64,000 nucleotides of DNA, from assembly GCA_046582635.1 (NCBI GenBank), contig JAYGEA010000056.1, positions 957 to 64,956 on the forward strand, written 5' to 3'. Position 1 is the first letter of the stretch. Each line of letters starts with the position of its first letter. The DNA comes from Alphaproteobacteria bacterium (GTDB lineage: Bacteria > Pseudomonadota > Alphaproteobacteria > GCA-2731375). Shown here piece by piece: positions 2,095 to 54,026 of this stretch. The notes under the pieces were generated by a model, which was not told the origin of the DNA, made no database searches, and saw only the letters and a program-made list of their open reading frames with translations. The position numbers were made by a program, and so were the translations under genes.

Positions 2095-3864
2095 ATGTCG
2101 TTGAACTACTTGGAGCCCAAGGTCGACGTGGAGCGCCGCGCCGACGGCAGCATTATTCTCTCCTCGCCCTACCCCATGGCCGGCCCCGTGGTCCAGTTGG
2201 GCCACTACATGCGTCATTGGGCCGGAAAGACCCCGGACCTACCCTTTCTGGCGCAACGGCTGGGCGATGGCTGGCAACACCTGACCTTCGCCGCCGCCCG
2301 CCGGCAAGCCGATGGCATATCCCAGGCGCTGCTGGATCGCGGCCTTGGTCCGGATCGGCCGTTGATGATCCTGTCGCCAAATTCCCTGCGCCATGGCGCC
2401 CTGACCTATGGCGCCATGCAGGTGGGCATTCCGGTGGCGCCGGTCTCGCCCGCGTATTGCCTGATGAGCCAGGATTTCGCCAAATTGCGCCATATTTTCG
2501 ATCTGGTGGCGCCGGCAATGATCTTCATCGAGGACCGGGCGCCCTTCGGTCCGGCGCTGGACAGTCTGGATCTGAATGGGGTCGAAGTGCTCGATGCCGC
2601 CGGCTTTGATGCACTGGCCGCGACAACGCCGGGCGGGGCGGTTGCGGCGGCCTATGACGAGGTCGGTCCGGGCAGCGTGGCGAAGTATCTCTTCACCTCC
2701 GGCTCCACCGGCTTGCCCAAGGGGGTCATCAACACCCAGGGCATGCTGTGCGCTAACATGGCGCAGTTACAACAGATCTGGCCGTTTCTGACCGAAAGCC
2801 CCCCGGTTCTGCTGGACTGGCTACCCTGGAACCATACCTTTGGCGGCAACATCGTGATCAACAACGCCCTCGCCAATGGCGGCACCCTGCACATAGACGG
2901 CGGCAAACCGGCGCCGGGCCTGATTGAAACCACCGTGGATAACATCCGGCATGCCTCGCCCAGCCTGTACTACAACGTCCCCGCCGGCTTCGCCGCCCTG
3001 CTGCCGTTCCTGGAAGACGACGCGGATCTGGCCGAGAGCTTTTTTTGCCGGCTGAATTTGATTTTCTATGCCGGCGCCGCCCTGCCCCAGGATCTGTGGC
3101 AGCGTCTGGAAGCCGTCTCCCTGGCCACCACCGGGCAAAAGGTCGCCATGGTCTCGGCCTGGGGTTCGACGGAAACCGCGCCCATGGCGACGGCGGTGCA
3201 TTGGCAAATCGACCGGGCCGGGGTGATCGGTCTGCCGGTGCCGGGCACGGAGGTCAAGATGGTGCCCAACGGCGGCAAGATGGAATTGCGGGTGCGCGGC
3301 CCCCATATCACGCCGGGCTATTTGAAACGCCCCGACCTCACCGCCGAGGCCTTTGATGGGGAGGGCTTCTACCGTATCGGCGATGCCGGCCGCTTCGCCG
3401 ACGAGGGGGCGCCGGTCAAGGGCCTGATGTTTGACGGCCGGGTGGCCGAGGATTTCAAGCTGACCACGGGGACCTGGGTCAATTGCGGCGGCCTGCGCCT
3501 CGCCGCGCTGACGGCGACCGCGCCGGTCTTGCAGGATGTGGTGGTGGCCGGCCATGACCGGGACTTCGTCAGCTTGCTGGCCTGGCCGAACCTGGCGGGC
3601 TGCCGCGCTTTTCTGGGCGATGATATGGAGGGGGGCGGCCTGCGTAGGCATATCAAGGACAGCCTGACAGCTCATAACCGGGCCAACCCCGGCTCCTCCA
3701 CCCGCATCGGCAGGCTGTTACTGTTATCGGCGCCGCCCTCGGTCGATGCCAACGAGATCACCGACAAGGGTTATATCAACCAACGCGCGGTACTGGAAAA
3801 CCGGGCCGGGGAGGTCGAGCGCCTGTATGCCGAGACCCCGGATGATGAGATTATTCAGCTTTAA
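2095..3864 (+). CDS. AMP-dependent synthetase/ligase (feruloyl-CoA / acyl-CoA synthetase-like)
   Basis: 589 aa. AMP-binding motif TSGSTGLPKGV and overall adenylate-forming enzyme architecture. Confidence 0.7.
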   Translation: MSLNYLEPKVDVERRADGSIILSSPYPMAGPVVQLGHYMRHWAGKTPDLPFLAQRLGDGWQHLTFAAARRQADGISQALLDRGLGPDRPLMILSPNSLRHGALTYGAMQVGIPVAPVSPAYCLMSQDFAKLRHIFDLVAPAMIFIEDRAPFGPALDSLDLNGVEVLDAAGFDALAATTPGGAVAAAYDEVGPGSVAKYLFTSGSTGLPKGVINTQGMLCANMAQLQQIWPFLTESPPVLLDWLPWNHTFGGNIVINNALANGGTLHIDGGKPAPGLIETTVDNIRHASPSLYYNVPAGFAALLPFLEDDADLAESFFCRLNLIFYAGAALPQDLWQRLEAVSLATTGQKVAMVSAWGSTETAPMATAVHWQIDRAGVIGLPVPGTEVKMVPNGGKMELRVRGPHITPGYLKRPDLTAEAFDGEGFYRIGDAGRFADEGAPVKGLMFDGRVAEDFKLTTGTWVNCGGLRLAALTATAPVLQDVVVAGHDRDFVSLLAWPNLAGCRAFLGDDMEGGGLRRHIKDSLTAHNRANPGSSTRIGRLLLLSAPPSVDANEITDKGYINQRAVLENRAGEVERLYAETPDDEIIQL

Positions 3865-3885
3865 AGCTTTTCAAGCTTGATCCAA

Positions 3886-3950
3886 GCCACCCGGCCACCC
3901 AATGCGTATCATCCCGTGGGTGGCCGGGTGGGGGAGCGGGTGGCTCGGTG
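3886..3950. repeat. REP-like palindromic element, copy 1 (putative bidirectional terminator)
   Basis: Sits between convergent gene ends. The stem GCCACCCGGCCACCC / GGGTGGCCGGGTGG encloses a 17-nt loop, followed by GGGAGCGGGTGGCTCGGTG. The 3' arm and tail closely match a second copy at 9112-9180. Confidence 0.6.
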
Positions 3951-3957
3951 ATTTCAA

Positions 3958-5250
3958 TCAAGCTTGAAATGCTTTAGGCACGGAGAAGCGGAAGACCGAG
4001 CCCTGGCCAAGGGTACTTTCAACCTGGATTTCGCTGCCGTGGGCGGCGGCGAATTCACTGCAGATCTGCAGCCCCAGGCCGGTGCCGGGTTCGCCATGGG
4101 TGCCGGATTTTGATTTCTCGGCGGTGAATTCGAACAAGCGCCGCACATGCGCGTCATCCATGCCAACACCATTATCGGCGACGGATCTTTCGACCCGGCC
4201 GTTATCAAGTTGCCGGCTTTGCACATCCACGACGCCGTCCTGATTGGTGAACTTGATCGCGTTCGATATGAGATTGCGCAGCACGGCTTCGACCATGTCC
4301 TGGTCAACGGTAACCATGTCGTCGGACAGGTCGGTATTGATGGTAATACCCTTTTCCGCAGCGACTTCACGTTGAAGTTCGGCCACGCGCCCGATCAACG
4401 GGCCCAACATGACGTCCGCGTCGGAAAACGTTCGGTCGCCCATCTGGCCGCGCGACCAGCGCAGCAGATTGTCCACCAATTGCAGCAAACGCCCGCCGCT
4501 GCGGTTGATTTCCCGGGCATATTCCCCCAGTTCCCGCCGGGTGGCGTGCTCGGCGTGATCGGCGATCAATTGCGCGAAGCCCAGCATGGTGTTGAATGGG
4601 CTGCGCAAATCATGGGCAATAATCGAGAACATTTTGTCCTTTGTCAGATTTGATTGCGCCAGTGCATCGCGCTGCGCCTCGATCTCGGCGGCGGCCCGGC
4701 GCTGTTCCGTGACATCATTGACCGTGACCACGCGGCCGCCGTCGGGCAGATCCCGAGCGCGAATTTCATAGAATTGATCACCCTTCAGGCGCAATTCGCT
4801 TCGCAGTTCCTGACCCTTCTGGATTTCTGACATCCGGGCTTTTATCAACTGCTCCGGATCAATCGGACCATAGTCGCCACGACGGGCGACATAAGCGAGC
4901 AATTCCTGCCAGTTCACGCCGACCTGCATCAGATTATCGGGCAGGTCCAGGATCGCCTGGAACGGATAATTCCAGGCAAATAGGCGATGGTCCGTATCAA
5001 ACGCGGCAACGCCTTGGGGCAGATTTTCCAAAATTTCACGCAGCAGATGCTCGGCGCTGCCATGATGCACCCCTTCTATCTTGGGCCGGGTTTGCGGCGA
5101 TCCATTGCGGGAGGTGGCGCGGGAGGTGGCGTTCGGCTCCGATGAACCGGAATCAATAGAGATGGAATCGACAAAGGCGCCCCTACCGTCGCCCGGGGAA
5201 ACCGGCAACGGGGTCAGCGTTCGCGATGTATTTTGGCCCCCTCTAGGCAT
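3958..5250 (-). CDS. PAS-domain sensor histidine kinase (soluble, orphan)
   Basis: H-box HDLRSPFNTMLGFAQLI and a C-terminal HATPase_c (DNGVGMD, GTGLGLQI). PAS-like region LENLPQGVAAFD. No transmembrane segments and no adjacent response regulator. The N-terminus is S/P-rich, so the true start is uncertain. Confidence 0.75.
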   Translation of the reverse strand: MPRGGQNTSRTLTPLPVSPGDGRGAFVDSISIDSGSSEPNATSRATSRNGSPQTRPKIEGVHHGSAEHLLREILENLPQGVAAFDTDHRLFAWNYPFQAILDLPDNLMQVGVNWQELLAYVARRGDYGPIDPEQLIKARMSEIQKGQELRSELRLKGDQFYEIRARDLPDGGRVVTVNDVTEQRRAAAEIEAQRDALAQSNLTKDKMFSIIAHDLRSPFNTMLGFAQLIADHAEHATRRELGEYAREINRSGGRLLQLVDNLLRWSRGQMGDRTFSDADVMLGPLIGRVAELQREVAAEKGITINTDLSDDMVTVDQDMVEAVLRNLISNAIKFTNQDGVVDVQSRQLDNGRVERSVADNGVGMDDAHVRRLFEFTAEKSKSGTHGEPGTGLGLQICSEFAAAHGSEIQVESTLGQGSVFRFSVPKAFQA

Positions 5251-5417
5251 AGCGGTGTTTATTACCCCTATACATATCGTCGGGACGGTGGTGTCGGGCC
5301 GTTCTCGTGAACCATTTTTGCTATCCCAAATTTCAGGGCAATATTCACCTTACGACTTAGAACAACCATTGTAGGGCGTTGAATCCTAAGAGAAAGTGAA
5401 GATCGGCTCGAATGGGC

Positions 5418-6185
5418 TTACCTTTGCCGTCCCCGGGCGACGAAATGGGGGTTTTCGAAGCCATCCTTGCCATAAAGAAGAGGGCTGCCGTCAAGGCGGC
5501 TGACGCTGCCCCCCGCGCAGGCCAGGACCGCATGACCGGCGGCTGTATCCCATTCCATGGTACGCCCCAAACGCGGATACAGATCCGCCACGCCTTCCGC
5601 CAAACGACAGAATTTCAGGCTGCTGCCCGCATCGACCCGCTGCTTGATGGGCAAATTCGCCAAGAAATCATCGGTTTCGGGCGAAGCGTGGGAACGGCTG
5701 ACCATGGCGACCATGCCGTCCTGTTCGGGCTGCCGGGCAGCAATCACCTCTGCCCCGCCAGCACCCCGCCGCCGCGTCACCCGGCCGGGCCCGGCGGCGG
5801 TATAGGTTTCCTCTTTTGCCGGGACATAGACACAGCCCAAGGCGGGTTCACCATTACGAACCAGGGCGATATTGACGGTGAAATCGCCATTGCGGGAGAT
5901 GAATTCCCGGGTGCCGTCCAGGGGGTCGACCAACCAGAACGGCCCCCCGCCCACTTCTGTCCGTTTGCCGGCGGCGACCTCTTCCTCCGCCACCACGGGA
6001 ATATCCGGGGTCAAGGCGCGCAGGGCGGCGACGATAATTGCTTCGGCCGCCTGGTCGGCTTCGGTGACGGGGCTGTCATCGGATTTCGTTTTGACTTCGA
6101 AATCACGGGCGTAGATCTCCATAATGGCGGCGCCGGCCTGGAGGGCAATGGCTTCTATGGCGCTGGCCAATTCCTGATCCGTCAT
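5418..6185 (-). CDS. cysQ: 3'(2'),5'-bisphosphate nucleotidase CysQ / inositol monophosphatase family
   Basis: 255 aa with IMPase-family motifs (PVTEADQAAE, WLVDPLDGTREF). Confidence 0.7.
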   Translation of the reverse strand: MTDQELASAIEAIALQAGAAIMEIYARDFEVKTKSDDSPVTEADQAAEAIIVAALRALTPDIPVVAEEEVAAGKRTEVGGGPFWLVDPLDGTREFISRNGDFTVNIALVRNGEPALGCVYVPAKEETYTAAGPGRVTRRRGAGGAEVIAARQPEQDGMVAMVSRSHASPETDDFLANLPIKQRVDAGSSLKFCRLAEGVADLYPRLGRTMEWDTAAGHAVLACAGGSVSRLDGSPLLYGKDGFENPHFVARGRQR

Positions 6186-7465: not shown

Positions 7466-8434
7466 CTACCCTCCGCTGCGCGGCATCGGCGAGCCGCCGC
7501 TACCGCCGCCGTCCTTGAAGGCCTCGCGGGCGATTTCCGAAATACCGCTGATGGCGCCGATCACCGAACTGGCCTCAAGCGGCAGCATGAGGATTTTCTG
7601 ATTGCGGGAGGTGGCGATCTGGCCCAAGGCCTCAATATACTTCTGCGCCACGAAATAATTGATCGCCTGGACATTACCCTTTGAGATGGCTTCGGAAACC
7701 ATCGCGGTGGCTTCGGCCTCCGCCTTGGCCTCGCGCTCGCGGGCCTCGGCGTCGCGGAAGGCGGCCTCGCGCCGGCCCTCCGCCTCCAGAATGGCGGCCT
7801 GTTTTTCACCTTCGGCGCGCAGGATTTCGGCCGCCCGGGTGCCCTCGGCCTCCAGAATATTGGCCCTCTTCTCGCGCTCCGCCTTCATCTGCCGGGCCAT
7901 GGCGTCCACCAGATCCCTGGGCGGGGCGATATCCTTGATCTCGATCCGGGTCACCTTGATGCCCCAGGGCGAGGTGGCGCCATCGACCACGGTCAGCAGG
8001 CGGGCATTGATCTCGTCACGCTTGGACAGCAATTCATCCAAATCCATGCTGCCCATCACGGTGCGGATATTGGTCATGGTCAGGTTCAAGATGGCCCGCT
8101 GCAACTGGCTGACTTCATAGGCGGCGGAGGCGGCATCAAGGATCTGGAAAAATACCACGCCGTCCACGGCGACCATGGCATTATCCTTGGTGATCACCTC
8201 CTGGGTCGGCACATCGAGGACCTGCTCCATCATATTCATCTTGGCGCCGATCCGGTCGACCACGGGGATGATCAGATGCAGGCCGGGCGTCAGGGTCCGG
8301 GTATAGCGGCCGAACCGCTCGACAGTGTATTCCGAGCCCTGGGACACCGCCTTGACCCCGGCGATGACCAGGATCACCGCCAGCAGCACCAGGGCAAAAA
8401 CAAAGATGGTCGAACCGTCGATGGGGAAATTCAT
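7466..8434 (-). CDS. SPFH domain / band 7 (stomatin-like) protein
   Basis: 322 aa. An N-terminal TM segment, then an SPFH core ([27 protein letters not shown]) and a charged coiled-coil C-terminus. Confidence 0.8.
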
Positions 8435-9030: not shown

Positions 9031-9111
9031 CAAAAAACGCAAAAAAACGCCCCGGCGATGGTCTCGCCGAGGCGCTCTCGCATTTCCAGTTTAGCTGGTT
9101 TCGCCAAGCCA

Positions 9112-9180
9112 GCCGCTCCCCCTCCCGACCACCCATAGATCATGATTCCGTGGGTGGCCGGGAGGGGGAGCGGGTGGTTC
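9112..9180. repeat. REP-like palindromic element, copy 2 (putative bidirectional terminator)
   Basis: GCCGCTCCCCCTCCCGACCACCC, a 17-nt loop, then GGGTGGCCGGGAGGGGGAGCGG: a near-perfect 22-bp stem between convergent gene ends. Arm and loop are homologous to copy 1. Confidence 0.6.
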
Positions 9181-9200
9181 AGTGGGCATTGATAAATGCT

Positions 9201-15246: not shown

Positions 15247-15688
<442 letters not shown>

Positions 15689-15883
15689 CCCTACTTTTCA
15701 AGCCAAAATTCCCAAATGTTCGAAAAAGAACAAAACTCGAACAACATTTCGCCTTATTGCGCCACTAGTCTGGTGGGCGAATTGGGCGTGCGCGTTCCTA
15801 ATCGGCCCGAACAGGACTTGGGGAAGCACTTGTCGTGGTCATGTTTTGACTTTGAAGGTGCTGTTTAATTATTTGTTAAGTCA

Positions 15884-17977: not shown

Positions 17978-19719
17978 CCACCCCCAAGACGCCCGGCGGC
18001 GCGCCCCATCTGATCGGCAGCAAGGCCCAGGCCATACAGACCGGCCGCACGCGGTTATTGACCGTGGCCCTGGTCTTTGCCGTGTGCTTCTTTGTTCTGG
18101 CCGGGCGCTTGGTTGAGTTAACGGTCATTCGGGAGCCGGGCAAGACCCTGACCTTTGTTCCCGCCGCGCCGACTATATCCACGGCCGGGCGGGCCGATAT
18201 TCTGGACCGCAACGGTATTCTACTGGCGACAAACCTGATGACCGCCTCCCTCTACGCCGATGCCAGGGCCGTGCCCGACGGTGCCAAGGCGGCCCAACGG
18301 CTGGTCAAGGTGCTGCCGGGATTAAGCCCCGCCACCGTGCGTGAGCGGCTGGCCACGGGCCGCGCCTTCGTCTGGCTGAAACGTAACCTAACGCCGTCGC
18401 AACAGCGGGCGGTCAATGATCTGGGCATTCCGGGCCTGCATTTCCGCGATGAACAGCGCCGCCTGTATCCCCATGGCGCCTTGGAATCCCACGTGCTCGG
18501 GTTCACGGACGTGGATGGCAACGGCATTTCCGGCATTGAAAAATTCTTCGATCAGGCCATGCGCGACCGTGGCCCTCAAGGCCGGGCCCTGCAATTGTCC
18601 CTCGATGCCCGCGTACAGTACGTCCTGCGCGATGAATTGATGGTGGCCATGACGCGCTTCCGGGCGGCGGGTGCCGCCGGACTGGTGATGGATGCCAATA
18701 ACGGCGAAATTCTGGCCCTGATCTCCCTGCCGGATTTCGATCCCAATCATCCCACGGCGGCGCCCGCGTTGTCCCGCTTCAACCGCGCCACCAAGGGGGT
18801 CTATGAACTTGGTTCCGTCTTCAAGGTTCTGACCGTGGCCATGGCCCTGGACAGCGGCACAACCAAGCTGCGCGGCGGCTATGACGCCACCAAGCCGATC
18901 CGGGTGGCGGGCTTTTCCATTCGCGACAGTCACGCCAAGCGGCGTTGGCTGTCAGTGCCGGAAATTCTGATCTATTCCTCTAACATCGGCGCCGCCAAAA
19001 TGGCCATGGACCTGGGCCGCGACGGCCAGCGCAAATACCTTGATCGTTTTGGTCTGTTGAGCCGGCTGTCTTTGGAACTGCCCGAGGTCGGCGCCCCCAT
19101 CAGCCCGGCCCGTTGGGGCGATCTTTCCACCATGACCGCCGCTTATGGTCATGGCCTGGCGGTCTCGCCCGTACAGTTCGCCTCCGCCTTTGGGGCCATG
19201 GTCAATGGCGGCGTCCTGATGCCCGCCACCCTGATCAAGCGGCAACCGGGCGAGCGCGCCTTGGGCGTGCAGGTGATCAGCGCGCGGACCTCGAACCAAA
19301 TGCGCCGGCTGCTTCGCGCCGTGGTGGTAAAAGGCACCGGGCGCAAGGCCCAGGTGCCGGGCTATCTGGTCGGCGGAAAAACCGGCACGGCGGAAAAGGC
19401 GGGCGTCGGCGGCTACCGGCGCAAGGCCCTGATCTCGTCATTCGTCGCGGCCTTTCCCATGACCAAACCAAGATACGTGGTCTATCTGCTGCTGGATGAA
19501 CCCCGGGGCGATGCCAAGACCCTCGGTAACGCCGGGGGCGGTTACACGGCCGCGCCACTGGTGGGCCGCGTGATAAGGCAAATTGGTCCGATCCTCGGTG
19601 TTCGGCCCGTCGATGAAACGGCGGCGGCCGTGCGCCAGGACATGGCGATGCCCCTATTTAGTCGGAAGCAGTTTAGTCGGAAGTCATTCACGCGGAAGCG
19701 GACCAGTGCGGTTAATTGA
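17974..19719 (+). CDS. ftsI: Peptidoglycan D,D-transpeptidase FtsI (PBP3)
   Basis: 581 aa with PBP dimerisation and transpeptidase domains (SVFK, SSN, KTGT motifs). ATGA overlap with ftsL. Confidence 0.9.
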   Translation: MTTPKTPGGAPHLIGSKAQAIQTGRTRLLTVALVFAVCFFVLAGRLVELTVIREPGKTLTFVPAAPTISTAGRADILDRNGILLATNLMTASLYADARAVPDGAKAAQRLVKVLPGLSPATVRERLATGRAFVWLKRNLTPSQQRAVNDLGIPGLHFRDEQRRLYPHGALESHVLGFTDVDGNGISGIEKFFDQAMRDRGPQGRALQLSLDARVQYVLRDELMVAMTRFRAAGAAGLVMDANNGEILALISLPDFDPNHPTAAPALSRFNRATKGVYELGSVFKVLTVAMALDSGTTKLRGGYDATKPIRVAGFSIRDSHAKRRWLSVPEILIYSSNIGAAKMAMDLGRDGQRKYLDRFGLLSRLSLELPEVGAPISPARWGDLSTMTAAYGHGLAVSPVQFASAFGAMVNGGVLMPATLIKRQPGERALGVQVISARTSNQMRRLLRAVVVKGTGRKAQVPGYLVGGKTGTAEKAGVGGYRRKALISSFVAAFPMTKPRYVVYLLLDEPRGDAKTLGNAGGGYTAAPLVGRVIRQIGPILGVRPVDETAAAVRQDMAMPLFSRKQFSRKSFTRKRTSAVN

Positions 19720-30741: not shown

Positions 30742-31604
30742 TGGACCGCTTGACGCTGAACCAGGTAAGGACCGGCAGGAACCGCCGCCGCCCCGGGCGG
30801 ACATCAACGCGCCGCCGGCTGCTCGTCGCCTGGGCAATGATTGGCGCCGTCGCCATTTCGTCCGCCGTCGGCGCCTGGCAACTGCGCCAAAGCGGCCTGA
30901 TCGAACGGACCTACGTTACCCTGGCCGATGGGCTGTCGGACTGGAGCCGGAACCGCATCGTGGCGGCCGGCTTGGTGGTCCGGCATGTCTTTGTCACAGG
31001 GCGGGGCGAGACCACCAAGGGCCAGGTACTGGCCGCCATGAAGGTGGAGAGTGGCCAGTCGATCCTGAATTTCGATCCCGACGAGGCGCGCCTGCGCCTG
31101 CTGGAGCTTGGCTGGGTCAAGACCGCCCGCGTGGAACGCCGCCTGCCCGACACCATCGTCGTTCGCCTGGAAGAACGCAAAGCCCTGGCCCTGTGGCAGC
31201 ACAAGGGCCGCCATGCCCTGATCGACCGGAGCGGCAGGACCATTACCCGCCATAATCTGGGCCGCTTCGCCCATTTGCCCGTGGTTGTCGGCCAACAGGC
31301 CCCGCTTGCCGCCGCCGCCCTAATCGACATGCTGTCGCGCAAGCCGGCCCTGTTCGCGCAAGTGCGGGCGGCGGTGCGGATCGGTGGGCGGCGCTGGGAT
31401 GTGCGCCTGAAAAACGGCATCAAGGTGTATCTGCCCGAATTGAACGCCTTCGCGGCCTGGGTCCGGTTGGCGGAGCTGGCGGCCGAAAACCGCATTTTTG
31501 AACGGGATGTCGCGGCCATTGATCTGCGCCTGCCGGACCGGTTTGTGTTGCGCCTGACGCCCGCGGCAGCGGCGAAGAAAAACAAGAACGGGAAGGATAC
31601 GTGA
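30729..31604 (+). CDS. ftsQ: Cell division protein FtsQ
   Basis: Single TM segment plus POTRA/FtsQ domain in the canonical position. Start uncertain (ATG at 30729 or 30741). Confidence 0.75.
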   Translation: MRALMDRLTLNQVRTGRNRRRPGRTSTRRRLLVAWAMIGAVAISSAVGAWQLRQSGLIERTYVTLADGLSDWSRNRIVAAGLVVRHVFVTGRGETTKGQVLAAMKVESGQSILNFDPDEARLRLLELGWVKTARVERRLPDTIVVRLEERKALALWQHKGRHALIDRSGRTITRHNLGRFAHLPVVVGQQAPLAAAALIDMLSRKPALFAQVRAAVRIGGRRWDVRLKNGIKVYLPELNAFAAWVRLAELAAENRIFERDVAAIDLRLPDRFVLRLTPAAAAKKNKNGKDT

Positions 31605-31606
31605 GC

Positions 31607-32890
31607 ATGGCCGGGGGCAGGAATGGTCTGATCGCCGCCTTGGATATTGGCAGTACCAAGGTTTGTTGTTTTATCGCCCGCCCCGACGCCGGCAACGGAC
31701 ATGCGGGCGGGCGCGTCAGCGGCATGCGGGTGATCGGCATCGGTCACCAGATCGCCAAGGGCATGCGCGCCGGCACCGTTGTGGATATGGACGCGGCGGA
31801 GGAAGCCGTGCGCGGCGCCGTGGATCAGGCCGAACGCATGGCCAAGGAACGGGTCGAAACGGTACTGTTGAGTTTCTCGGGCGGGCGGCCGGTCTCGCGC
31901 CTGATTGACGTGGAATCGGATATCGCCGGACACGAGATCGGCGAACGTGACCTGAAGCGCGCCCTGGCCCAGGCCCATCTGCTGGCCCGGCGCAGCACCG
32001 AGGGGCGGGAGATCCTCAACGCCATTCCCGCCGGCTATACCATCGATGGCACGCCGGGATTTCGCGAACCGCGCGGCATGTTCGGGGCCCGGTTGGGCCT
32101 GCGCCTGCATGTGGTGTCGGCCGAGGTGGGTCCGTTGCGCAATGTGAAGCTGCTGGCGGAACGCTGCCATCTGGAAATATCCGCCCTGGTGGTCGCCCCC
32201 TACGCCTCCGGCCTGTCGACCCTGGTGGAGGACGAGATCGACCTGGGCGTCACCTTGATTGATATGGGCGGCGGCAGCACGGATGTGGCGGTGTTCTATG
32301 ACGGCCATATGATCCATACCGATCAGGTGCCCGTGGGCGGCAATCACGTGACCAACGATATTGCCCGCGGCCTGTCGACCTCCGCCGCCCATGCCGAACG
32401 CCTGAAAACCCTGCACGGCAGCGCCGTCGCCGGTCCCGACGACGAACACGCCATGGTCAGCGTGCCCCGGGTGGGCGAAAGCGGCGCGGACGCCGTGCAG
32501 CAGATCCCCCGCTCCATGCTGATCGGCATCATCCAGCCGCGGATCGAAGAAACCCTGGAATTGGTCCGTGACCGCCTGCAAGCCTCGGGCCTGGCGCGGA
32601 CCGCCGGCCGCCGCGCCGTGCTGACGGGGGGCGGTTCCCTGTTGACCGGCGTACGGGAACATGCCGCGCGCGTCCTGGACAAACAGGTCAGGGTGGGCCG
32701 CCCCCTGGGCCTGCACGGCCTGGCCGAGGCCACGGAAGGGCCGGCCTTTGCCGCCGCCGCCGGGCTGTTGGCTTATGCCGACCGGGCGCCCGGAGAGGAA
32801 CATTTGGCGGCCATGGCCGACGGCGGCCATGGCAACTGGGGCGACGGCCGCATTCACCGCCTGGGCCGCTGGTTCAAGGAGAACTTCTAG
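31607..32890 (+). CDS. ftsA: Cell division protein FtsA
   Basis: Actin-like ATPase motifs LDIGSTKV, DMGGGSTD. Confidence 0.9.
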   Translation: MAGGRNGLIAALDIGSTKVCCFIARPDAGNGHAGGRVSGMRVIGIGHQIAKGMRAGTVVDMDAAEEAVRGAVDQAERMAKERVETVLLSFSGGRPVSRLIDVESDIAGHEIGERDLKRALAQAHLLARRSTEGREILNAIPAGYTIDGTPGFREPRGMFGARLGLRLHVVSAEVGPLRNVKLLAERCHLEISALVVAPYASGLSTLVEDEIDLGVTLIDMGGGSTDVAVFYDGHMIHTDQVPVGGNHVTNDIARGLSTSAAHAERLKTLHGSAVAGPDDEHAMVSVPRVGESGADAVQQIPRSMLIGIIQPRIEETLELVRDRLQASGLARTAGRRAVLTGGGSLLTGVREHAARVLDKQVRVGRPLGLHGLAEATEGPAFAAAAGLLAYADRAPGEEHLAAMADGGHGNWGDGRIHRLGRWFKENF

Positions 32891-32943
32891 TCATGCCGAC
32901 AACAACATTTCGATCCACCCTAAAACGTCACATCACACTATTA

Positions 32944-33044
32944 CCGTCATTGCCGGGCTCGACCCGGCAATCCAGAGCGACGAACGCAAATGTTCGCGGC
33001 TCTGGATTCCCGGATCTTCGCTTCGCTACGTCCGGGAATGACGG
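32944..33044. repeat. Nested palindromic (cloverleaf-like) element in the ftsA–ftsZ spacer
   Basis: Outer arms CCGTCATT / AATGACGG enclose three internal hairpins. These are (GCCGGG, 5-nt loop, CCCGGC); (CCAGAGC...CGAAC, GCAAAT loop, GTTCG...GCTCTGG); and (CCCGGA, 16-nt loop, TCCGGG). Terminal 14-bp inverted repeats are CCGTCATTGCCGGG and CCGTCATTCCCGGA. Confidence 0.5.
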
Positions 33045-33143
33045 CGTTGGGTGCAGCCCGACCATTAATTCCAGTCCAACCATGCAGTGTTCATTGGCCA
33101 CCGGCGCCGGCCACCGGCATCAATAGGTAGAGGAGACCTAATC

Positions 33144-34850
33144 ATGACCATCAATCTCAATGCCCCGCAAATGACAGAGCTGAAACCCCGTATCGTGGTC
33201 ATCGGCGTCGGAGGGGCGGGCGGCAACGCCGTCAACAATATGATCTCCTCCGGCCTCGACGGGGTGGAGTTCATCGTCGCCAACACCGATGCCCAGGCCT
33301 TGGCGCAAAGCACGGCGGACCGGCGCATCCAACTGGGCGCCGGCATCACCCAGGGCCTGGGCTGCGGCGCCCGGCCCGATGTCGGCCGCGCGGCGGCGGA
33401 AGAGGCCATCGATCAGATCCTCGATCACATGGCCGGCACCCACATGGCCTTTATCACCGCCGGCATGGGCGGCGGCACGGGCACCGGCGGCGCGCCGGTC
33501 ATTGCCGAGGCCCTGCGCAACCAGGGCATCCTGACCGTCGGCGTGGTGACCAAACCGTTCCAGTTCGAGGGCGGTCAGCGATTGCTGTCGGCGGAGCGCG
33601 GCATCGAAGAGCTGCAATCCTTCGTCGATACCCTGATCGTCATCCCGAACCAGAATTTGTTCCGGATTGCGAATGAAAAAACCACCTTCGCCGATGCCTT
33701 TGCTATGGCCGACGACGTATTGCATTCCGGCGTCCGGGGCATCACCGATCTGATGGTGCTGCCGGGCCTGATCAATCTGGATTTCGCCGACGTGAAAACG
33801 GTGATGGCGGAAATGGGCAAGGCCATGATGGGCACCGGCGAGGCGGAGGGCGAGAAACGCGCGATCGAGGCGGCGGAAGCCGCGATTTCCAACCCGTTGC
33901 TGGACGATGTCTCCATGCAGGGCGCCCGGGGCGTTCTGATCAACATCACCGGCGGCATGGACCTGACCCTCTACGAAGTGGACGAAGCAGCCAACCGGGT
34001 GCGCCAGGAAGTCGATCCGAATGCCAATATCATTGTCGGCTCGGCCCTTGAGGATTCCCTGAACGGGCGCATGCGGGTATCCGTGGTGGCCACGGGGATC
34101 GAGTTGGAGGAAGGCGCCCAGCGGCCCCTGATTACAACGCCGCGCCTGGCCGCCGTGGCCGTCCGGCCCGCCGATCAGCCCATTGCCAACGAACCGGCAC
34201 CCATGACCGAAGAGCCGCCGATGGCGCCTATTCCCGACATTGTTGCCGAAGGCGCGATGGCGCCCGCGGTGGCACCCGCCGCCATGGCGGAAACGCCGGC
34301 GGCGCCGGAGGTTGAAGAGCCGCCCGCATTGCCCCTGTCGTTCGAGCAGCGTGTTCCGGCTCCGAAACCACCCCAGGCGGAACCCGACCCCCTGAGCCAT
34401 CAACCCAAACGGACGGCCGATATCAGCCTGGACGACGGGCCTTTCATGGCCCCACCGCCCAACCTGCCGGAGCGGGACCGCGCCCCCTTGCAGCAGCCCG
34501 ATGCCTTGGCGGAGGCCGAAGCCGGCAATCCCACGGATCGGCCGGTCAAGCGCAAACGGAGCGGTTTTTCGCTGTTCCGGAGGAAACAGGCGGCGCCGAC
34601 GGAGGCCGCGCCGGTTCAGCCAAGGCTCGAATCGCCCAGCCCCGAGCGGATGCGTCAGGCGATGCCGCCCCCCGCACGACCCGCCGCCCAGCCAGATGTC
34701 GTGCCGGCTGCACCGGAGGTGCCCGCCATCGCCCCCGAAATGGCGGCCCCCGAACTGCCCGCGCAAGACCCCGCACGTCCCCTCGCGCCGCCGCAAACGG
34801 AAGAGGATTTGCTTGAAATTCCGTCATTCCTGCGGCGTCAGGCCAACTAA
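33144..34850 (+). CDS. ftsZ: Cell division GTPase FtsZ (long P/A/E-rich C-terminal linker)
   Basis: AGGAGA ribosome-binding site. Tubulin signature GGGTGTG. Total 568 aa, with an extended linker after the conserved core (about residue 330). The ORF's upstream extension is rejected. Confidence 0.95.
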
Positions 34851-48953: not shown

Positions 48954-49139
48954 CAGCCCTCGGCGTCACGGTTCTTGGGATTTGGCAGCCTTCGGGGTGC
49001 CCACTGTCGGGGTGACGCCCATCAGCGTGCCACCCGTCAGATCAAACAGCCCAAAATTGGCATCAATTTTCGGCTGATAATTTGATCTAATTCAATGCGT
49101 TAACGCAACTTATCTGCGTTCAAAAGAACGCAGGTTGCG

Positions 49140-52684: not shown

Positions 52685-52735
52685 GTAAAGCGGGACCCCG
52701 GGCCGGCGATAATCCGCCGAAATTTGAATCTAATT

Positions 52736-54026
52736 TTAGGCTGTTTGATCTTGGGATCGCTGCGCCAACAGCCGCGCGGCGACGATTGCCGCCAAGGCCA
52801 AAAGCGCGAACAGGGCGCTGAGAATAAAACCATGGCCGGCAGCTCTAAATCCAGCAGCCAGCCGAACAGGACGGAGGCGATCAAAACCCCTATCGAATAG
52901 CCGACGAAGACAAAGCCAAATACCTTGCCGGGTTCCCCCGGCGGAATGACGGCGCGGATCATCAAATCCCGTGGCGGCAGAATGGCGCCGAGGCCGAGGC
53001 CGCTGACAACCATGATGGCAATTAACAGAGGCGGCGAAGTCGGCGCGAACGCGGCTAACATCGTTGCCACCGCCGCCAGACCCAGGGCGCCCGCCGCCGT
53101 GATCAAATGTCGCCCGAAACGATCGGCAATAACACCGGCCAGCAGGATGCCGCCGACCACGCCGAACAAATGGCCGGTCAGGGCGGCGCTGGCCAGATCC
53201 AAATTTAGGCCATGCAGGTTTTTCAACCCCGTGATGGTGAATGCCAACAGTCCGTCGCTGGCCATGCCGTAGAGAATATTGAAACCCAGGAACAACAAGA
53301 TCGGCGCGGTCAACAGCAGACGCAACCCGGATGGCGCGGCGCCACCCCCCCCGGCGCCAAGGCCGGCGGCCGGGCATCCCGGTCACCCAGAACGCTGTAT
53401 CGCGATGCCACCAGCAACAACGCCAATAGGCCCGCTGTTCCCGACACGATCAGGGCGGTGCGCCAATCGAACAATTCCGCCAGCGCCAATATGGCCAGGG
53501 GCGCACAAGCCCCGCCCAGGAAGCCGGAAAAGGTGTGGTTGGAATAGGCCTGGCCCAAGCGGCTTTCATGAATGATGTTGGACAGAATGGCATAGTCGGC
53601 CGGGTGAAAGACGCTGTTGCCAAGGCCAGCAATGACCGCGAACAGCAACAACATCCAATACTGATCGGCAAATCCCATCAGCAAGATAGCCACGGCATTC
53701 AATCCCAGGCCGCACAGCAGAACCCGGCGCGGGCCCAGGCTGTCAACCAGAAAGCCCACCGGTGCCTGGACGATGCCGCCCAGCAAACCATAGGCCATCA
53801 TGGCCATGCCTAGTTCCATATAGCTGACACCGAATTCAGCCTTCAGCAGCGGAAACAGCGGCGGCAGGACCAGGGCATAGAAATGGCTCAGGTAATGCCC
53901 GATGCCGATAAGGCCCAATACCCACCGCTCGCACGCCCGCGGCGCCTCGTCGGGCGCTTGGCGTCCAATACGGTCAACCAGAGTGGTCACGCTAACTTCC
54001 TTTACAACAGGCGGGGTAGATATCAA
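52736..54026 (-). pseudogene. MFS transporter, disrupted by two frameshifts (one at a G8 homopolymer, 53345-53352)
   Basis: An MFS-like N-terminal half (53310-54026) and C-terminal half sit in different frames. The final TM helix is in a third frame. Either a pseudogene or homopolymer sequencing errors. Confidence 0.55.

Follow-up and report, generated by a model that had tools for sequence, protein, structure and literature searches.

The ftsA-ftsZ locus

The window analyzed here is a stretch of 64,000 nt (64 kb) from an uncultured alphaproteobacterium, in which the division genes ftsA and ftsZ are separated by a spacer of 253 nt. Within this spacer we observe a 101-bp element (32944-33044), reading CCGTCATTGCCGGGCTCGACCCGGCAATCCAGAGCGACGAACGCAAATGTTCGCGGCTCTGGATTCCCGGATCTTCGCTTCGCTACGTCCGGGAATGACGG in full, which lies 53 nt past the ftsA stop (32890) and 99 nt ahead of the ftsZ ATG (33144). 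The features of the locus, with positions counted in the window, are as follows:

31601-32890, + strand: ftsA, with the start given by the open reading frame (ORF) list and the assignment by synteny (Pfam FtsA/SHS2_FTSA domains before ftsZ in relatives)
32944-33044, either strand: whole element, a putative inverted (HH, tags-outside) heterodimer of CGTC-tagged REPs/Ssn-related motifs, judged from the sequence, the folds and 91 similar dimers elsewhere
32945-32975, + strand: unit 1, canonical, in NTS orientation (covariance model [CM] R1, 50.7 bits, E 5e-12)
32976-33001, no strand: spacer of 26 nt between the units, AGCGACGAACGCAAATGTTCGCGGCT, delimited from the RNA fold
33002-33043, - strand: unit 2 (CM R1, 25.6 bits, E 7e-5, match at 33002-33042)
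33045-33143, + strand: ftsZ-proximal leader, outside the element, with ribosome-binding site (RBS) GAGGAG, from alignment with relatives
33144-34850, + strand: ftsZ, 568 aa, from homologs with PF00091 and PF12327

The 99 nt adjoining ftsZ on the 3' side of the element, RBS included, are conserved and intact: the leader is near-identical in a relative with 91% FtsZ identity, and partial conservation persists at ~80% identity. Consensus scans of 32600-33400 yielded neither a sigma-70-like promoter nor an intrinsic terminator, and the element itself is not an intrinsic terminator, since no U-tract follows it. Rfam gave no match to the element at the gathering threshold (best E at a permissive threshold, 1.5), and ARAGORN reported no tRNA-like gene within it.

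Several minor features accompany the locus. The best sub-threshold Rfam match, at 32946-33007, is the Xanthomonas small RNA (sRNA) sX14/Xoo3 with 15.6 bits (cut-off, 80); REP-like repeats that are transcribed may account for some annotated sRNAs. Just 3' of the element, at 33064-33080, the leader carries TTAATTCCAGTCCAA (TTAA-N7-CCAA), which agrees in one half with the CtrA box of Alphaproteobacteria (TTAA-N7-TTAA), and the relative with 91% FtsZ identity has a similar CtrA-like motif, TTAACCCCATTCCAT. Upstream of the dcw cluster, a bacterial RNase P RNA of class A is found at 15249-15690 on the + strand (310 bits).

Two inverted hairpin units form a three-way junction

The predicted fold of the element is a three-way junction on the + as well as the - strand, with an outer pairing (CCGTCATT/AATGACGG) around three hairpins. 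This agrees with the original prediction, which described a 101-bp cloverleaf-like structure with the same outer pairing at this position. As RNA, the + strand reaches a minimum free energy of -58.8 kcal/mol, compared to -33.7 +/- 3.4 kcal/mol for dinucleotide shuffles (z -7.33), with none of 200 shuffles folding equally well. The - strand folds with -60.8 kcal/mol (z -7.23), and the DNA fold has a z-score of -6.79. Given these scores on both strands and for DNA, the structure is genuine and lies far outside the range expected by chance. The 14-bp terminal inverted repeats proposed earlier are present as inverted repeats, with 12 of the 14 positions identical. When the whole spacer between ftsA and ftsZ is folded, the element keeps the same self-contained junction and shows no pairing with the ftsZ RBS.

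The cloverleaf is better seen as one hairpin unit (CGTCA-stem-loop-stem-TCCAG) that occurs twice in inverted orientation, with a short structured spacer between the copies. Its outer stem consists of both tags and the first stem bases pairing mutually, and its central arm consists of the two CCAG tails and the spacer. Unit 1 comprises a CGTC tag, a 9-bp stem (ATTGCCGGG/CCCGGCAAT), a 5-nt loop (CTCGA), and a CCAG tail, and its 31-mer is also found unchanged in other genomes (for example, at loci L084, L088, and L102). Unit 2, read on the - strand, has the same CGTC tag and CCAG tail, a different stem (ATTCCCGGA/TCCGGGAAT), and an enlarged loop of 16 nt (CGTAGCGAAGCGAAGA). This enlarged-loop variant (..GGGTCTTCGCTTCGCTGCGCCC..; ..TCTTCGCTTCGCT..) recurs at L088, L109, and L102 and on a Pannonibacter plasmid (L001). 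The ends of the spacer, AGC and GCT, lengthen the CCAG/CTGG pairing, and its center forms a small hairpin (CGAAC..GTTCG). Spacers of comparable length with an AGCG...GCGG..C outline occur at L074, L084, L021, and L114, where the sequence likeness is only loose.

The units resemble CGTC-tagged REPs and Ssn-related motifs

CGTC-tagged REPs were described by Di Nocera, De Gregorio & Rocco (2013, BMC Genomics 14:522; PMC3733652) as an unpaired CGTC (or TGTC/CCTC) tag, an 8- to 9-bp stem starting with A-T pairs, a loop of 4 to 5 nt, and a CCA tail. They are found mainly in Alphaproteobacteria, mostly as HH dimers that are often heterodimers with 20- to 100-bp spacers, often structured; families CGTC-1 to -4 take in dRS3 of Neisseria and RPE-4 and RPE-6 of Rickettsia (PMC3733652). 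The same motif is also known as NTS or Ssn-related motif (SRM). The NTS, whose Neisseria version CGTCATTCCCGCGMAVGCGGGAATCYRG encompasses dRS3, is bound by SsnA (Chenal et al. 2025, Nat Commun 16:2388; PMC11893778), a GIY-YIG protein of 94 aa with a single domain.

The correspondence with the element is close. The tags are outermost, with CGTC at 32945-32948 (+) and 33043-33040 (-); in both units, the stem starts with A-T followed by T-A, and a CCA(G) tail follows the palindrome. As in the published HH dimers, the arrangement is tags-outside around a structured spacer, here of 26 nt, and the two stems differ, making it a heterodimer. The alphaproteobacterial host is shared as well, as is the position past the 3' end of a co-directional upstream gene. 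Relative to the NTS, the unit shares CGTCAT, the palindrome, and a C-rich tail (CGTCATTCCCGCGMAVGCGGGAATCYRG versus CGTCATTGCCGGGCTCGACCCGGCAATCCAG). One difference emerges. The loop of unit 1 agrees with the definition at 5 nt, whereas that of unit 2 deviates at 16 nt, and atypical loops have been noted for only a few CGTC families (PMC3733652). CGTC-tagged REPs recur many times within a host genome, of which the 64-kb window, with its one dimer, covers a part.

Family membership rests on sequence, architecture, and the covariance model. The published SRM search pattern, HGTCWYN(0-2)YYVSBRHN(0-5)WNVSBRGN(0-2)RNCYNB, gives no strict match in the 64-kb window: unit 1 is two substitutions off, and unit 2 fits only when the loop gap is raised to ≤20. 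As this pattern is a hand-made search string, its failure lowers strict membership only and leaves the resemblance intact. Judged from its sequence, then, the element appears to be an HH dimer of CGTC-tagged REPs, and the appropriate annotation label would be a CGTC-REP/Ssn-related-motif dimer instead of an ftsZ riboswitch, small RNA, or promoter element.

Distribution of the repeat family and covariation of its stems

A pattern scan (CGTCATTSCCGG-N3-20-CCGGSAATCCAG) over one genome per species revealed at least 119 loci. Among the matches listed, most belong to Alphaproteobacteria (Hyphomicrobiales, Parvibaculum, Rhodospirillaceae, and a Magnetospirillum MAG), and the remaining loci to a few Chloroflexota, Beta-, Gamma-, and Deltaproteobacteria, and Neisseria dentiae. 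Most units are arranged in tags-outside dimers; the listed matches include 91 of these, whose median length is 87 nt and whose ends read CGTCA...TGACG, and the two units of one dimer usually differ in their stems. The family spacers fall into loose subfamilies, some of them 150- to 160-nt versions with additional hairpins.

Hairpin stems show strong compensatory variation across genomes. In 123 distinct units, chosen by tag, loop, and tail with pairing not demanded, the nine stem positions are paired in 97.1% of cases, compared to 75.1% in shuffles. Double-sided changes are seen at eight of the nine stem pairs, and the covariation score is 0.525 versus 0.116. G-T pairs are not commoner than other mismatches (~6 of the ~38 non-Watson-Crick cells in this set), which is more in line with selection on a palindrome or hairpin at the DNA level than with selection on RNA.

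We observe no sign of target-site duplication: boundary direct repeats of 90 family dimers do not exceed those of shuffled controls, and the window copy has none either. Searched by blastn with the 101 bp, 72,556 plasmids gave a sole match, a partial one to unit 2 in Pannonibacter. A full-text literature search for literal element sequences returned unrelated primer matches only. Neither a search with the termini, nor a repeat finder, nor a filter-free CM search gave a convincing second copy in the 64-kb window; the copies are found in other genomes. The CM matches in the window are these two units, plus a weaker one of 15.9 bits at 18847-18886. The latter was rejected as a further unit, as it lies inside a 581-aa ORF and its stem pairs are mismatched.

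Association with genes for small GIY-YIG nucleases

The family is tightly associated physically with genes for single-domain GIY-YIG proteins of ~95 aa. At L004, a 98-aa GIY-YIG gene (PF01541, E 1.5e-18) is nested between a + unit and a - unit. A search of metagenomes with the L004 protein recovered 80 loci at 57 to 69% identity, of which 61 have a unit within 150 to 200 nt of the gene and 40 are flanked by a + unit on the upstream side and a - unit on the downstream side; more than ~400 nt from the Ssn-like gene, units are nearly absent. The nearest solved structures to these GIY-YIG proteins are those of UPF0213 (1ZG2 and 1YWL), and NCBIfam returned no specific family for them.

Ssn nucleases are known to bind the hairpin as single-stranded DNA only, and on the tag-bearing strand only, and to cut a few nucleotides 5' of the tag (PMC11893778). 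Among thousands of Ssn homologs, 71% have at least one Ssn-related motif flanking the gene and 42% have them on both sides (PMC11893778), compared to 76% and 50% in our set. The nuclease link emerged here independently of the study of Chenal et al., and the two sets of figures agree. In N. meningitidis, the SsnA/NTS system restricts transformation, and NTS-ssnA-NTS has been likened to an insertion sequence (IS), with Ssn-driven mobilization raised by the authors as a hypothesis only (PMC11893778).

At L025, in a betaproteobacterial MAG (~7665-7790), a dimer encloses only the first ~20 codons of a GIY-YIG gene, ending in ..VYMLASKRNGTLYV and a stop. This remnant points to internal deletion within a unit-ssn-unit cassette as a possible origin of gene-less dimers. 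With half of the 80 ssn-like genes nested between units, one truncated ssn remnant, and no target-site duplications, our data lend modest support to the IS/REPIN-like Ssn system already raised in the literature. By tblastn, no Ssn homolog was found in the 64-kb window (best E 0.26) or in the dcw loci of relatives.

Other arrangements are also observed. At L004, positions 5010-5700 hold three family elements in tandem, from an flgH-like gene to dksA, the third of which carries the complete 98-aa GIY-YIG gene, and an extra degenerate unit follows that gene. In five metagenome loci (L132, L134, L142, L145, and L149), the ssn-like gene is preceded by two complete dimers and followed by one or two, so that repeats pile up around the nuclease gene and the gene is not nested in one dimer.

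The element is absent from the orthologous spacers of relatives

An identical element within an identical 253-nt ftsA-ftsZ spacer is present in the closest relative, L121 (99% FtsZ identity). In L122 (91%), the contig starts ~12 nt past the end of the element (~33057 in the window) and is uninformative on the element itself; this start may be an assembly break at a repeat, in which case L122 may carry the element as well. The spacers of five further relatives with available DNA measure 166 nt (L123, 81% FtsZ identity), 180 nt (L125, 79%), 100 nt (L208, 76%), 128 nt (L209, 75%), and 79 nt (L207, 61%), and a sixth, P0010 (75%), has a spacer of 181 nt according to gene calls only. In these five, no unit was found anywhere in ~21 kb of dcw cluster. 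Subtracting the 101 bp from the window spacer leaves 152 nt, which is inside the range of the relatives; at ~80% FtsZ identity, the spacers are too diverged for insertion breakpoints to be placed at base level. The absence of the element from these orthologous spacers argues, by sequence comparison, for a lineage-specific insertion. It makes a clean case of a repeat inside the essential dcw operon that leaves the conserved ftsZ leader undisrupted.

A probable passenger repeat in the ftsZ leader

We consider it probable that the element represents a single insertion of a known, widespread repeat, consisting of two inverted CGTC-tagged REP hairpins with the tags outermost and a short structured spacer. 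This uncultured alphaproteobacterium would have acquired the dimer between ftsA and ftsZ in its recent ancestry, and nothing points to a dedicated function in ftsZ control. A passenger repeat is the best-supported reading, and its location in the ftsZ leader is in all likelihood coincidental. Following the published strand specificity, each strand of the dimer would bear one cleavable unit at its 5' end, and an Ssn protein, if the genome encodes one, would be expected to nick just outside the boundaries, at ~32935-32944 (+) and 33045-33053 (-). Such a geometry would suit excision and copying of the dimer, and could also fragment incoming or exposed single-stranded DNA at the locus. Dimers of this kind would resemble gene-less derivatives of the unit-ssn-unit cassette. 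In a transcript reading through from ftsA, the element would form a stable RNA junction without a U-tract, whose influence might not go beyond a buffering of mRNA decay. Conservation lends no support to such a secondary effect on the ftsA and ftsZ messages, which is possible but unlikely.

An RNA role of this type has been proposed for REPs generally, namely, uncoupling the stability of neighboring messages. Applied to this locus, the three-way junction in the ftsA-ftsZ read-through transcript would serve as a barrier to 3'-5' exonucleases or as an endoribonuclease processing site and uncouple the stability of ftsA and ftsZ mRNA. We regard such an exapted RNA element as unlikely, while noting that it is compatible with a passenger repeat as a secondary use. 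The very stable + strand fold, an independent module in the full spacer, speaks for it, and so does the placement between co-directional genes, 53 nt past the upstream stop, which is typical of "uni-REPs," argued to be mostly transcribed (Di Nocera et al.; PMC3733652). However, none of the five DNA-available relatives carries the element, so that ftsZ regulation in the clade does not require it, and the antisense strand folds equally stably. Furthermore, G-T pairs are not in excess over other mismatches (~6 of ~38), which fits a DNA palindrome better than RNA, no U-tract is present, and the RBS is not sequestered.

Still less likely is a co-option in this lineage, either of the RNA junction to set the relative stability or processing of the ftsA and ftsZ messages, or of the single-stranded DNA hairpin pair as an Ssn cleavage or recombination boundary in the division-gene cluster. 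To the same doubtful category belongs a weaker and broader reading, by which tags-outside dimers would be internal-deletion derivatives of an IS-like unit-ssn-unit cassette and the "transposase-less" CGTC REPs would be mobilized by a GIY-YIG-based mechanism free of target-site duplications.

The original prediction also considered a mosaic element resembling a MITE or RIME. The interspersed nature of the repeat (at least 119 loci) and its absence in relatives bear this out in part, and the element shares with MITEs and RIMEs its small size, noncoding nature, terminal inverted repeats, structure, and dispersal. It is not a classical MITE, however: the terminal inverted repeats (12/14) are there, but the family lacks target-site duplication and a parent element with a DDE transposase.

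Mobilization as a REPIN by a RAYT (an IS200/IS605-like Y1 transposase), as for GTAG-type REP doublets, is very improbable. A REPIN, as reportedly defined by Bertels and Rainey (2011), combines a pair of inverted REPs with a cognate RAYT gene that these REPs flank. Like REPINs and BIMEs, the element consists of two short palindromes in inverted orientation, separated by a short spacer and folding into a larger structure; it is intergenic, lacks target-site duplication, and, at the level of the family, goes with one small nuclease gene that lies between the repeats. However, the tag is CGTC with a GIY-YIG nuclease, as opposed to GTAG with an HUH Y1 transposase, and RAYT genes flanked by CGTC units were found neither by Di Nocera et al. 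(PMC3733652) nor at the loci studied here. The gene that units do flank encodes a GIY-YIG nuclease (on both sides in 40 of 80 loci here; see also PMC11893778). REPINs are also usually lineage-specific, whereas near-identical CGTC units occur across many genera.

A dedicated cis-regulatory 5' untranslated region, acting as a riboswitch-like ftsZ leader that senses a signal or controls translation, can be dismissed with similar assurance: its position upstream of ftsZ and its very stable fold would suit such a role, but the element is a generic repeat found in unrelated intergenic contexts (at least 119 loci), is absent from the orthologous leaders of relatives, has no Rfam match, and does not interact with the RBS. 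The earlier suggestion of a structured 5' untranslated region modulating ftsZ is therefore not sustained, as relatives lack the element, the leader at 33045-33143 is intact, and no RBS pairing is seen.

Other repeats in the window

Two further kinds of repeats are present in the window, both distinct from the ftsA-ftsZ element. An unrelated palindromic intergenic repeat occurs in two copies (3862-3976 and 9109-9184; CCACCCGGCCACCC...TGGGTGGCCGGGTGGGGGAGCGGGTGG) with 81% identity over 64 nt. Both copies fold into long hairpins, and a larger 39-nt inverted repeat encloses the first one; this is probably another REP-like family of the genome. In addition, two AT-rich 43-nt inverted repeats (49039-49081 and 52709-52751) are 84% complementary and lie 3.6 kb apart with several ORFs between them, one of 866 aa. 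The pair may mark where a mobile element begins and ends, or reflect the duplication of a regulatory region.
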